Below, one piece after another: positions 14,277-19,041 of a stretch of DNA of 64,000 bases. Below the pieces are notes generated by a model. It had not been told where the DNA came from. It worked only from the letters and a program-made list of their open reading frames with translations, and searched no databases. Origin of the DNA: Escherichia coli 042 (GTDB taxonomy: Bacteria > Pseudomonadota > Gammaproteobacteria > Enterobacterales > Enterobacteriaceae). Positions within the stretch are counted from its first letter, which is position 1. Each line of letters opens with the position of its first letter. The translations under genes were made by a program, and so were the position numbers. The stretch is taken from assembly GCF_000027125.1 (NCBI RefSeq), contig NC_017626.1; one strand, written 5' to 3'.

Positions 14277-15072
14277 GGTTCTCTCCAGCTTTAGTGTCGT
14301 TTTGTGTAGGGCAAAAACGAATGACTTTCGTTAAATTAATCGGAAAACAAAGCATTACCTTTTAACTAAAAGATAAGTGACCGTGTTGACATAGTTTTAG
14401 CGAGAAATTAATTCTCCATAGGAGAGCAATATCACATCGCAGAATTACAGTGAGAACGTGCATAAATTTAGCGGGAAAAGACATAAGGAAAAGCTCATTT
14501 GTCAGACAAATCACCGAGCGCGCAGCAGATTAATCCATAAGATTAGCCTGGAAATCCTTGTTGTCTTTGGTACCCATGCGGGATGTCTTCTTTTTAACCA
14601 GTCAATAGGCTGCATTACCTGGCGTTGAGTTTTTGAAATGGTGTAATAACCGCAACTCAAAGATGTGGAAAATGCGCGTCATTCATTTCGTCATTAATTA
14701 TCACCGTGCTCATTAATTAACAGAACACGTATACTGAGAGCCATATCGCAAAAATGAAAAAACGTTTTAAAAAATCATTGCCTCATCATGAATTCAAATC
14801 CCCCTATTAATATCAACAAGATACAAAAAGCATCATCATTAAAATTCATTGCAGTTACATTGATTTCATCAATGAAATGTAAAAATATATAAACTTGATG
14901 ATTTAAGCATTTTCTTATACCCGTTCAGACGTTATTCTTATTTCAGATCATCGTCAGAATTGACTCCACGATCACATTTCGGACCGGCAGAAAGGAATTA
15001 TTCTGCAAACAGTAATTATGGTGTTTTGATTTATCTTGCACCTCTCCACTTCTGGATATAAGGATATTAGGT

Positions 15073-15576
15073 ATGGCAACCGCTGGAATGCTTCTCAAAC
15101 TCAACTCTCAAATGAACCGCGAGTTTTACGCATCCAATCTCTACCTTCACCTGAGTAACTGGTGTTCTGAACAGAGTCTGAACGGCACCGCCACTTTCCT
15201 TCGCGCCCAGGCACAAAGTAATGTGACCCAAATGATGCGCATGTTTAACTTTATGAAGAGTGTCGGCGCTACCCCAATCGTTAAAGCCATTGATGTTCCC
15301 GGTGAAAAACTGAACTCTCTGGAAGAACTGTTCCAAAAAACGATGGAAGAATACGAGCAACGTTCAAGCACGCTGGCGCAGTTAGCCGATGAAGCGAAAG
15401 AACTGAATGATGATTCAACCGTCAATTTCCTGCGCGATCTGGAAAAAGAACAGCAGCATGATGGCCTGTTGCTGCAAACCATTCTTGATGAAGTGCGCAG
15501 TGCGAAACTTGCGGGTATGTGCCCTGTGCAGACCGACCAACATGTTCTGAATGTCGTGTCACACCAGCTGCATTGA
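15073..15576 (+). CDS. ftnB: ferritin-like protein FtnB
   Basis: 167-aa [34 protein letters not shown]..., paralogous to ftnA 1.3 kb downstream. Confidence 0.92.
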
Positions 15577-15588
15577 TCATACATCGGC

Positions 15589-15625
15589 GCTAATGCATTG
15601 CGCCGATGAAGTTTTTGAGAAACCG
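15589..15625 (+). terminator. Rho-independent terminator downstream of ftnB
   Basis: Hairpin CATCGGCGCTAATGCATTGCGCCGATG followed by AAGTTTTT just after the ftnB stop. Confidence 0.5.
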
Positions 15626-15655
15626 CTGCCTCATCTTTTTGAAGCAGCGGTTTTT

Positions 15656-15907
15656 TTAATGGGATTCGCCCTGTGGGGTAAACTTGAGTTCAATCAGCGC
15701 GATGGCTTTTTGGATTGCCCGCATGGTGACCGGGTCTGCGGCGGCGGGATGGTGAGTAAAGTCGATATTCTTCAGCTGGCTGGACATTTTTTCACGAACT
15801 TCAACGGGCGCGATTACATCGAGAACATCCAGAATTTGTTTGATAACCAACTGGCAAGCAACCACATCAGAAACCAGTTCCTGATCGGCATTCAGCGGCT
15901 GGGACAT
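15656..15907 (-). CDS. yecJ: DUF2766 family small protein YecJ
   Basis: 83-aa [27 protein letters not shown]... recognised as YecJ. Confidence 0.85.
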
Positions 15908-16021
15908 CGTAAACTCCTGATAGCATTTTGAAAGCCGTTATAGTAGCGGCTTCACATCTTCAGCGATAGTCACATCCACCGTCATCAGGACACAAAAAAA
16001 CCTGCCGGAGCAGGTTTTTTG

Positions 16022-16108
16022 TTATCGGAACATATTGCCTGGCGGTACGTCTTTGAACGTCTTGCAATAGTTATTGAACATACTTTTCAGGATCTTGCGC
16101 AGTTTCAT
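16022..16108 (-). CDS. azuC: small protein AzuC (28 aa), within the IsrB sRNA locus
   Basis: Reverse strand reads ATG AAA CTG CGC AAG ATC CTG AAA AGT ATG TTC AAT AAC TAT TGC AAG ACG TTC AAA GAC GTA CCG CCA GGC AAT ATG TTC CGA TAA = MKLRKILKSMFNNYCKTFKDVPPGNMFR; below the ORF-track size cut-off. Confidence 0.8.
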   Translation of the reverse strand: MKLRKILKSMFNNYCKTFKDVPPGNMFR

Positions 16109-16369
16109 CGCGGCACTCCGACTATTTGTTATGCAGGTGTTATTGTCTTTGCGCTTATAATATGACAACCATCACAAAAATCAATCTTTATGTGATGTAA
16201 ATCACACAAATACCTCTTTAATGTTATAAAAATGATAATCAAAAAGCAGCCCCCCCTTTCTGACACATACAGATGGCAAGAAATAGCGCCTGCCAGGCGT
16301 CTTTTCCGGCCATTGTCGCAGCGCTGTAGCGCGTAAAATACTGCTTTCTTTTACTCTTCTGGCTGGACC

Positions 16370-16693
16370 ATGAGACTTCTGATTCTGACTCTTTCATTAA
16401 TAACGCTGGCGGGGTGCACAGTTACTCGCCAGGCTCATGTGGGCGAAGTTGACGCGGCAACAGGTATTGTTCGGTTGGTTTATGATCAGGCTTTTTTGCA
16501 GCATGCCCGTACCGATCGTTATGTCAGTCGCGGAATCGCCGATCGCGCATGCCAGCAGGAAGGCTATACCCACGCTATCCCCTTTGGTCAGCCAGTAGGC
16601 AACTGTAGCCTCTTTGCGGGTTCCTTATGTTTGAATACGGAATTCACTTTGTCATATCAGTGCCATCATTCCGCCTTCCCTGTTTTTCTCTAA
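16370..16693 (+). CDS. yecR: lipoprotein YecR
   Basis: 107-aa ORF with lipoprotein signal MRLLILTLSLITLAGC, recognised as YecR. Confidence 0.88.
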   Translation: MRLLILTLSLITLAGCTVTRQAHVGEVDAATGIVRLVYDQAFLQHARTDRYVSRGIADRACQQEGYTHAIPFGQPVGNCSLFAGSLCLNTEFTLSYQCHHSAFPVFL

Positions 16694-16864
16694 ATGTTTT
16701 AATCAGCGAGGGGGATCTTCGCTGATTAAATAAATAGCGGTAATGCGTTTTATTCCCATTCGTATTTTTAATAAATGAAGTTTATATTTTACCTTTTGCA
16801 AATAATAAAATAACAAATTATAGTGACGCCACAGCAACAAATATAACCTTTGTGGAGCACTATC

Positions 16865-17362
16865 ATGCTGAAACCAGAAATGATTGAAAAACTTAATGAG
16901 CAGATGAACCTGGAACTGTACTCTTCACTGCTTTATCAGCAAATGAGCGCCTGGTGCAGCTATCATACCTTCGAAGGTGCTGCCGCGTTCCTGCGCCGTC
17001 ACGCCCAGGAAGAGATGACGCATATGCAGCGTCTGTTTGATTATCTGACTGATACCGGCAACTTACCGCGTATTAATACCGTTGAATCTCCGTTTGCTGA
17101 ATATTCCTCACTTGATGAATTATTCCAGGAAACCTATAAACACGAACAATTAATCACCCAGAAAATTAACGAACTGGCTCATGCTGCAATGACCAATCAG
17201 GACTACCCAACATTTAATTTCCTGCAATGGTATGTTTCTGAGCAGCATGAAGAAGAGAAACTGTTCAAATCGATTATTGATAAATTAAGCCTGGCAGGCA
17301 AAAGCGGCGAAGGTTTGTATTTTATCGACAAAGAACTCTCCACCCTCGACACACAAAACTAA
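16865..17362 (+). CDS. ftnA: ferritin FtnA (non-haem iron storage)
   Basis: ORF contains [31 protein letters not shown]... with ferroxidase E-x-x-H motif (QEEMTHMQ); start trimmed to MLKPEM (165 aa). Confidence 0.95.
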
Positions 17363-17368
17363 TGTTCT

Positions 17369-17395
17369 CCGGCGGCAGGTTTACTGCCGCCGTTT
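17369..17395. terminator. probable bidirectional terminator between ftnA and yecH
   Basis: Hairpin CGGCGGCAGGTTTACTGCCGCCG flanked by T/A runs between convergent genes. Confidence 0.45.
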
Positions 17396-17399
17396 CAAA

Positions 17400-17639
17400 T
17401 CAGTGACGGCAAATCTTACTCTGATCGGTCGAAAAACCTTCTTCCGAAGGTATAAATTTGCCTTTTGCTGCCAGAAACGCTACCAGCTCTCCCGCTGTCA
17501 TCCCTTCTGCCGAGCAAGTGTGAAAACGTGCCTGTTCACCAAAACGCGCTTTAATCGCAGCTTCCAGACTGGCATGCGTATATTGCTCACCTGATTCAAT
17601 CATCATATTTAACACTTCATGACCGTGAATAGAGTCCAT
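17400..17639 (-). CDS. yecH: DUF2492 family protein YecH
   Basis: 79-aa ORF MDSIHGHEVLNMMIESGEQYTHASLEAAIKARFG... recognised as YecH. Confidence 0.88.
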   Translation of the reverse strand: MDSIHGHEVLNMMIESGEQYTHASLEAAIKARFGEQARFHTCSAEGMTAGELVAFLAAKGKFIPSEEGFSTDQSKICRH

Positions 17640-17829
17640 CGTTCCTCCTCAAAAAAAAGCTAGCGTAGCGATTGCCGCTTACCAAGACTTTGCGCCAGCG
17701 CAGGACTGAATGCATTTTATTGTACATTTATATTTACACCATATGTAACGCCGGTTTGACGAAGCAGCCGTTATGCCTTAACCTGCGCCGCAGATATCAC
17801 TCATAAAGATCGTCAGGACAGAAGAAAGC

Positions 17830-19041
17830 GTGAAAAACAGAACTCTGGGAAGTGTTTTTATCGTGGCGGGAACCACAATTGGCGCAGGCATGCTGGCAAT
17901 GCCGCTGGCTGCGGCAGGTGTTGGTTTTAGCGTCACGTTAATCTTGTTGATTGGGCTTTGGGGGTTGATGTGCTACACGGCGCTATTACTACTGGAGGTG
18001 TACCAGCATGTCCCGGCAGATACCGGTCTGGGCACGCTGGCAAAACGCTATCTGGGACGCTACGGTCAGTGGCTGACGGGCTTCAGTATGATGTTCTTAA
18101 TGTATGCTCTGACTGCGGCATACATCAGCGGTGCTGGTGAATTGTTGGCCTCCAGCATCAGCGACTGGACAGGTATTTCAATGTCGGCAACCGCTGGCGT
18201 GCTGTTGTTCACTTTTGTTGCCGGTGGCGTGGTTTGTGTCGGAACTTCGCTGGTCGATTTATTTAACCGTTTTCTGTTCAGCGCCAAAATTATTTTTCTG
18301 GTGGTGATGCTGGTACTGCTACTTCCGCATATTCATAAGGTGAATCTTTTAACCCTGCCGTTGCAACAGGGGCTGGCACTGTCTGCAATCCCGGTGATTT
18401 TTACGTCGTTTGGTTTTCACGGTAGCGTGCCGAGCATTGTCAGTTATATGGATGGCAATATTCGTAAGCTACGCTGGGTGTTTATAACCGGTAGTGCGAT
18501 CCCTCTGGTGGCATATATTTTCTGGCAGCTGGCGACGCTTGGCAGCATTGATTCAACAACCTTTATGGGATTGCTGGCTAATCATGCCGGATTAAACGGG
18601 CTGTTACAGGCGTTACGCGAAATGGTGGCCTCTCCGCATGTTGAGCTGGCGGTGCATTTATTTGCTGATTTAGCCCTCGCCACGTCATTTCTCGGCGTTG
18701 CGTTAGGTTTATTTGATTATCTGGCAGATTTGTTTCAGCGTTCAAATACCGTTGGTGGACGATTGCAAACTGGTGCAATTACCTTTCTGCCGCCGTTAGC
18801 GTTTGCACTGTTTTATCCACGAGGATTTGTGATGGCGCTGGGTTACGCCGGTGTGGCGCTGGCGATACTGGCATTGATTATCCCTTCGCTGTTGACCTGG
18901 CAAAGCAGAAAGCACAATCCTCAGGCGGGTTACCGGGTGAAAGGTGGTCGTCCGGCGCTGGTGGTGGTGTTTCTCTGTGGTATTGCTGTGATTGGCGTGC
19001 AATTTTTGATTGCGGCAGGCTTGTTACCAGAAGTGGGATGA
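17830..19041 (+). CDS. tyrP: tyrosine-specific transport protein
   Basis: 403-aa polytopic ORF from a GTG start, [33 protein letters not shown]..., recognised as TyrP. Confidence 0.95.

Follow-up and report, generated by a model that had tools for sequence, protein, structure and literature searches.

The genes ftnB and ftnA are a well-known ferritin gene pair of Escherichia coli, and both the missing ferroxidase center of FtnB and its proposed role in Fe-S repair have already been published. The iron sites of E. coli FtnA have been assigned to individual residues. Site A is formed by Glu17, His53 and the bridging Glu50 (PMC7762939, a 2020 JBC review), site B by Glu50, Glu94 and Glu130, and site C by Glu130, Glu49, Glu126 and Glu129, with Tyr24 hydrogen-bonded to Glu94 (PMC7762939). 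The orientation of Glu130 has been attributed to His46 (PMC3663513). A review states that all ferritin types but FtnB show rapid ferroxidase activity (PMC6315955). For Salmonella, the summary of Velayudhan 2007 in PMC4450229 describes FtnB as important for the repair of the oxidatively damaged Fe-S cluster of aconitase and for virulence. In E. coli, ftnB is under the control of CsrA (PMC6686035, Pourciau et al. 2019); the same paper cites work in which ftnB is controlled by sigma-E and Cpx and ftnA is activated by Fur/iron, and calls the Fe-S donor role of FtnB “yet to be confirmed in E. coli”.

Two further systems resemble FtnB in part. The vertebrate L-chain ferritin also has its ferroxidase ligands replaced, has kept the fold and occurs beside an active paralogue (PMC6315955). 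However, the losses in the L chain and in FtnB arose independently, and the carboxylate cluster on the cavity face of the L chain has no counterpart on helix B of FtnB. The cyanobacterial SynFtn resembles FtnB in being an additional ferritin, linked to stress and modified in its iron site, that coexists with an FtnA homologue, but SynFtn lacks site C only and its A/B ferroxidase center works, whereas FtnB has lost the A/B center itself (PMC7762939).

The window analyzed here is a 64,000-nucleotide stretch of DNA from E. coli 042 (contig NC_017626.1), in which positions 15073–17362 run from the start codon of ftnB to the stop codon of ftnA (Table 1). A megablast of 14700–17700 found a match in 5,421 of 5,426 complete E. 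coli genomes, and the DNA of the window was about 1% diverged from nearly all of them. The gene order, taken from the annotation of the best megablast match, was araF-ftnB-yecJ-azuC-yecR-ftnA-yecH-tyrP. The two ferritin genes are on the same strand and 1,288 bp apart, with yecJ and azuC (both on the minus strand) and yecR (plus strand) in the gap. The start of ftnA was placed at the ATG at 16865, as in the RefSeq annotation and the sequence of PDB 1EUM; a TTG at 16850 is an upstream extension made by the open reading frame lister. There was no difference of substance between the FtnB of the window and the FtnB (formerly YecI; NF011597) of E. coli and Salmonella: the protein is identical to WP_000179469.1, matches the equivalog model over its full length, is encoded at the same locus, and its gene is preceded by the same GGA (CsrA) motifs.

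Table 1. Coordinates of the features of the ftnB-ftnA locus in the window.
Feature	Position	Strand	Remarks
ftnB leader, 127 nt 5' of the ATG	14946-15072	+	5' UTR length from Pourciau et al. 2019
ftnB CDS	15073-15576	+	167 aa, 167 codons; identical to the RefSeq ftnB product WP_000179469.1
FtnB residues 47-55, AQSNVTQMM, remodelled helix B segment	15211-15237	+	S49/N50/Q53 replace E49/E50/H53
Two stem-loops directly 3' of the ftnB stop	15582-15656 (15582-15608, 15617-15656)	+	second followed by a T-run
yecJ (DUF2766)	15656-15907	-	Pfam and annotation; convergent with ftnB
azuC, 28-aa small protein gene between the ferritin genes	16022-16108	-	WP_010723106.1
yecR, lipoprotein gene directly 5' of ftnA	16370-16693	+	Pfam and annotation
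ftnA CDS	16865-17362	+	165 aa, 165 codons; canonical non-heme ferritin
FtnA residues 47-55, AQEEMTHMQ	17003-17029	+	E49 site C, E50 A/B bridge, H53 site A (roles: PMC7762939)
Stem-loop after the ftnA stop, common to convergent yecH	17370-17392	+	-20.2 kcal/mol, z = -4.8

BLASTP aligned FtnB and FtnA without gaps (53 identities in 148 residues, 36%; E = 7e-32), and the segments AQSNVTQMM and AQEEMTHMQ are therefore truly aligned. The preliminary description had reported that FtnB is without the ferroxidase motif at helix B, where E49, E50 and H53 are replaced, and the gapless alignment confirmed this. The ligand loss proved to be wider than the helix B trio. FtnA carried the complete set of ferroxidase ligands, with the A/B/C iron site intact, whereas the residues of FtnB at the site positions were E17, Y24, Q46, S49, N50, Q53, Y94, E126, Q127, H129 and D130. 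Six of ten site residues were thus substituted (E49S, E50N and H53Q, and also E94Y, E129H and E130D), with Glu17, Tyr24, Glu126 and Gln127 retained. Among the five A/B ligands (E17, E50, H53, E94, E130), Glu17 alone was unchanged and Glu130 was shortened to Asp, so the di-iron ligand set is not present in FtnB. The site C carboxylates were also incomplete, with S49, E126, H129 and D130 in FtnB at the positions of E49, E126, E129 and E130. Further differences were Q46 for H46 and G131 for E131, and helix B had no acidic residue in FtnB compared with five in FtnA. Because the bridging Glu50, the site A histidine and the site B Glu94 have become Asn, Gln and Tyr, the canonical di-iron ferroxidase site cannot form in FtnB. 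Based on the residues that remain (E17, Y24, E126, Q127 and D130), and on the retention of H53 in 25 of 80 orthologues, a weak or mononuclear metal site may still be present.

Both proteins belong to the ferritin family as defined by Pfam (PF00210, gathering score 24.5), with scores of 94.9 bits (5.5e-27) for FtnB and 127.4 bits (5.2e-37) for FtnA. The NCBIfam models separated them. FtnB scored 355.3 bits on NF011597, “non-heme ferritin-like protein” (cut-off 154), over residues 1–167 of 167, and 102.4 bits, below the cut-off of 178, on NF007638, “non-heme ferritin”. FtnA showed the reverse pattern on the two equivalog models, with 379.1 bits on NF007638, and had the same residue as PDB 1EUM at every position of the aligned stretch (5–148).

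Our literature search found no in vitro characterization of FtnB, and no entry for it was found in the PDB. An AlphaFold2 monomer model of FtnB was built on 51 sequences (mean pLDDT 90.9). The modelled helices (4–33, 37–63, 83–110, 114–146 and 151–166) lay at the same positions as those of FtnA and formed a four-helix bundle with a long B-C loop and a short fifth helix E. Foldseek superposed the model on E. coli FtnA (4ZTT, 4XGS, 1EUM and 4REU) and on the Vibrio cholerae ferritin 3QZ3 with TM scores of 0.87–0.90 and an rmsd of 1.6 Å, over 160–164 columns (160–162 for 1EUM, 4ZTT and 4XGS) with 33–34% identity and in the register of the sequence alignment. Ligands conserved at shifted positions were looked for in this structure-based alignment of FtnA and FtnB and were not found; since the confident model superposes on the FtnA crystal structures, the FtnB ligands are predicted not to be shifted. 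Three glutamates of FtnB (E92, E93 and E95) flank Y94 and were considered as shifted ligands, but on the model they would be at i+/-1 or i-2 on a helix of unchanged register, directed away from the site, and were rejected. Near position 50 there was no acidic residue (Q48, S49, N50, V51). Compared with E. coli FtnA (NF007638), its paralogue 1.3 kb downstream, FtnB has in common the fold, the length, the helix positions and E17, Y24, E126 and Q127, and differs in S49, N50, Q53, Y94, H129 and D130 and, in helix E, in C150, Q153, T154, H157 and H167.

A search of 5.8 billion proteins identified 263 relatives at E <= 1e-10, and those that were named came mostly from Enterobacteriaceae (Escherichia, Shigella, Salmonella, Citrobacter, Enterobacter, Lelliottia, Leclercia and Intestinirhabdus). 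In the orthologue set, which comprised 80 full-length sequences, each from a member of the Enterobacteriaceae, Glu was never found at position 49, 50 or 94. Position 50 was Asn in 73 sequences (91%) and Ser in seven, position 94 was Tyr, His, Phe or Leu, and position 53 was Gln in 52, His in 25 and Leu in three. Glu17 was invariant, as were A47, Q48, T52, M54 and M55, and Gln127 (98%) and Asp130 (93%) were nearly so. Helix B followed the near-invariant pattern R44-x-Q-A-Q-[SG]-N-[VI]-T-[QH]-M-M-R. As this segment is almost invariant, the pocket of FtnB is constrained and not drifting. The sequence, the family models, the conservation among orthologues and the structure-based comparison agree with the earlier proposal that FtnB would be unlikely to oxidize iron in the usual way, in that each points to the absence of the usual iron oxidation center.

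Alternatively, ftnB could be what is left of a duplicated ferritin gene, in decay and without a function of its own. In favor of this, dN was roughly three times as high for FtnB as for FtnA (0.132 vs 0.046), and some of the E. coli and Shigella entries are truncated or frameshifted. However, dN/dS (Nei-Gojobori) was 0.083 between E. coli and Salmonella and 0.097 between E. coli and Enterobacter, values that are rough as dS is saturated, and purifying selection of this strength (about 0.08–0.10) indicates that ftnB was remodelled rather than decaying. In addition, 51 FtnB sequences had 26 invariant and approximately 48 nearly invariant columns, the remodelled pocket included, many genera carry an intact gene of 167 aa, and mutant phenotypes have been published. 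The selection and conservation data rule out a pseudogene and effectively refute this reading, to which we assign a negligible probability.

Comparison of the 80 FtnB sequences with 63 ligand-complete ferritins identified positions that are both highly conserved in FtnB and specific to it. These were N50, R97, D130 and G131 (position 131 is Glu in 94% of ordinary ferritins) and a helix E/C-terminal cluster of C150, Q153, T154, H157, L159, Q165 and an invariant terminal H167. The former ferroxidase pocket (E17, Q46, N50, Q/H53, Y94, Q127, D130 and G131) was conserved in the family as much as the rest of the protein. In ferritin cages, helix E surrounds the four-fold pore, and for this reason we speculate from the alignments that the Cys/His motif of helix E is a candidate family-specific site for a metal or a partner. 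A more far-reaching possibility, which we regard as doubtful, is that the pocket has been re-purposed and, with the Cys/His/Asp motif (C150, Q153, T154, D155, H157 and H167), forms a non-oxidizing Fe2+ site, or serves in docking or gating for the hand-over of iron to Fe-S repair or Suf proteins.

An exhaustive HMMER search, run against 1.84 billion cluster representatives, gave only one full-length close cluster and a few divergent ones, followed by ordinary ferritins; 63 of the 88 near-full-length neighbor clusters carried E17/E50/H53/E94/Q127/E130. Ten ligand-less clusters were looked up, and the two that contained named organisms were both enterobacterial (Mangrovibacter and Tenebrionicola). 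The search of the whole library for a wider ferroxidase-less ferritin clade gave enterobacterial clusters only. Mangrovibacter and Tenebrionicola have divergent ferroxidase-less copies at the ftnB position, between otsBA or araFGH and yecJ. The Tenebrionicola copy was only 28% identical to E. coli FtnB, and the same organism has, after yecR, an FtnA with all of the ligands and 84% identity to that of E. coli; in Mangrovibacter, ftnA does not adjoin yecR. The Salmonella locus had exactly the gene order of E. coli, while in that of Enterobacter insertions separate ftnB from yecJ and azuC from yecR. Overall, ftnB was near yecJ in all five related loci examined (in Enterobacter with the insertions), Pfam AzuC matches were found in related loci, and the chromosomal position (otsBA/araF - ftnB - yecJ ... 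yecR) was conserved in the window, Salmonella, Enterobacter, Mangrovibacter and Tenebrionicola. The ligand-bearing relatives closest to FtnB were gammaproteobacterial FtnA proteins. We infer that a local duplication in the ancestry of the Enterobacteriaceae probably gave rise to the pair, after which the FtnB copy would have diverged fast and with strong asymmetry before it came under constraint.

The preliminary description had the two genes tandemly linked. They are indeed neighbors and share a strand, but are separated by three genes and by two strong terminator hairpins of ftnB. The hairpins directly 3' of ftnB had a folding energy of -40.3 kcal/mol (z = -6.8), and none of 200 shuffled sequences was as stable; they are likely a terminator shared with the convergent yecJ. 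Together, the convergent genes and the strong hairpins rule out co-transcription, and ftnB and ftnA are neighbors that are neither adjacent nor co-transcribed. A consensus scan for promoters and terminators gave counts not above those of shuffled sequences, and missed the ftnB hairpins owing to their loop size. A sigma-70-like site at 16796–16824, 5' of ftnA, was observed as a consensus match only.

The leader of ftnB contained four GGA motifs (14981, 14994, 15054 and 15062), the last in the Shine-Dalgarno region. They match the CsrA sites described for the ftnB leader, where four potential sites were reported, three of them footprinted and one over the Shine-Dalgarno sequence (PMC6686035). 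There was no stable structure beyond chance in the ftnB 5' UTR (z = -0.18), and an Rfam scan of 14277–17900 identified no family at gathering score. A CpxR-like box, GTAAAAATATATAAA, was found with one mismatch at 14879–14893 and was rejected, as six such matches in the window compared with 3.5 expected is not significant.

These data bear on whether FtnB could be a bacterial analogue of the L chain that co-assembles with FtnA into mixed 24-mers and tunes the release of iron. An inactive paralogue beside an active one, subunits of equal length with five shared helices and a gapless alignment, and the linkage of ftnB and ftnA kept in E. coli, Salmonella and Tenebrionicola are all consistent with such an arrangement. 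Against it, the two genes are separate transcription units with strong terminators, and in Mangrovibacter ftnA is not beside yecR. Their published regulation is also opposite, ftnA being induced by Fur and iron and ftnB being controlled by CsrA, Cpx and sigma-E and, as the Salmonella work is summarized, repressed by Fur in that organism. In addition, the part of FtnB most specific to its family is helix E with the C-terminus, where the four-fold contacts are made, and our literature search found neither evidence for co-assembly of FtnB with FtnA nor a report of a heteropolymer. We consider mixed 24-mers very improbable.

In a csrA mutant, overexpression of ftnB raises total cell iron and deletion of ftnB restores it, and derepressed ftnB leads to higher cell iron and impaired growth in low iron (PMC6686035). 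The rise in cell iron means that FtnB does sequester iron, and could mean that it is an ordinary, slower storage ferritin which, like an L-chain homopolymer, oxidizes and mineralizes iron via the cavity surface or other sites and has no special role in Fe-S metabolism. The ferritin fold and helix E retained in the model are in keeping with slow storage, and L-only ferritin still slowly oxidizes Fe2+ (PMC6315955). However, helix B of FtnB is without an acidic residue where FtnA has five, which suggests poor nucleation on that face, and the regulation of ftnB is unlike that of ftnA. Moreover, in the Salmonella work as summarized, the ftnB mutant had Fe-S repair and virulence phenotypes that were absent from ftnA or bfr mutants. 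Based on these points, we consider slow storage unlikely, while giving it some weight.

A role of FtnB as an iron donor for Fe-S repair, also suggested in the preliminary description, has been published for Salmonella (Velayudhan 2007, as summarized in PMC4450229), and has only indirect support in E. coli (PMC6686035, PMC10536872, PMC13252143). FtnB, Bfr and Dps have been proposed as iron sources for Suf (PMC10536872), and E. coli FTNB enhances an Fe-S enzyme in yeast (PMC13252143, a 2026 preprint). We consider it highly probable that the two proteins are enterobacterial paralogues of which FtnA is the storage ferritin and FtnB a ferroxidase-less donor of labile iron. In FtnA, Fe2+ binds at the intrasubunit di-iron center (E17, E50, H53, E94 and E130, with E49, E126 and E129 at site C) and is oxidized and mineralized within the 24-mer cage, as in standard iron storage. 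FtnB keeps the ferritin subunit fold without being able to build the canonical di-iron site, and from its sequence and the published genetics we infer that it most likely holds easily mobilized iron. Under envelope, oxidative or stationary-phase stress, this iron would be passed to Fe-S cluster repair or Suf-dependent assembly. Expression of ftnB is independent of ftnA, from a separate transcription unit that CsrA, Cpx and sigma-E control. In this account the ligand loss, the fold, the conservation, the selection and the synteny come from our analysis, and the physiology from the literature.

Our analysis adds little beyond published work. Publications from the late 1990s and 2007 onwards already describe the missing ferroxidase center of FtnB and connect the protein with Fe-S repair and with the virulence of Salmonella, and in E. 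coli the gene is annotated and covered by a dedicated NCBIfam model. The additions made here are modest: as judged from the alignments, the remodelled pocket and the Cys/His-rich motif of helix E are conserved signatures of the FtnB family. The conserved pocket and the helix E motif offer concrete residues of FtnB to mutate.

FtnB carried a conserved, family-specific motif on helix E and at its C-terminus, of which the C-terminal residue, H167, was invariant. FtnA-type ferritins lack this motif, with the exception of D155. Altered versions of FtnB were present in some of the database entries found in the protein search (P0024, P0026 and P0012). These alterations included two internally frameshifted stretches in a Shigella flexneri version and an internal deletion of 25 residues in one E. 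coli version, and entries that were partial at the N-terminus were also present. The altered entries suggest either that FtnB has occasionally been inactivated in some lineages, or that there were errors in assembly.

Features of the ftnB-ftnA region and of the Tenebrionicola-like contig (L007)
Feature	Sequence	Coordinates	Strand	Description
FtnB helix E/C-terminal motif	window	15511-15573		residues 147-167; C150, Q153, T154, D155, H157, H167
yecJ	window	15656-15907	-	DUF2766; convergent with ftnB
azuC	window	16022-16108	-	28-aa small protein MKLRKILKSMFNNYCKTFKDVPPGNMFR; between both ferritin genes
yecH	window	17400-17639	-	DUF2492; NCBIfam "YecH family metal-binding protein"; convergent with ftnA
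FtnB-position gene	L007	8001-8489		
FtnA gene	L007	11491-11979		

The most stable neighbor of ftnB is yecJ. In the window and in every related locus examined (the Salmonella locus L002, the related loci L005 and L006, and the Tenebrionicola-like contig L007), yecJ was convergent with, and immediately 3' of, the ftnB-type gene, and this placement held even in loci with genes inserted elsewhere. The ORF lister lengthened azuC to a 48-aa ORF starting at TTG, and the RNA around azuC gave no Rfam match above threshold. On the ftnA side, yecH and ftnA have a terminator hairpin in common, and the arrangement of these two genes in Salmonella was the same as in the window. A functional link of YecH to iron is possible.

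The intergenic region between the divergent araF and ftnB genes (window 14277-15072) was AT-rich and unusually long, at about 800 bp. A pair of CpxR-like half-sites within it (14879-14893) was statistically indistinguishable from chance.

Of the 5,421 complete E. coli genomes that matched across 3 kb of the ferritin region (window 14700-17700), only one had an identity of at least 99% (best, 99.1%), and all the others were 95-99% identical. The lineage of the window is therefore sparsely represented among complete E. coli genomes, and it may belong to Shigella or to a divergent clade of Escherichia. The proteins encoded in this 3 kb were nevertheless standard.

The FtnB-position gene in the Tenebrionicola-like contig encoded a very divergent copy, with only 28% identity to E. 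coli FtnB, in which the helix E motif was lost. By contrast, the product of the FtnA gene 3 kb away had 84% identity to E. coli FtnA. These identities amount to an extreme asymmetry in rate between the paralogues.
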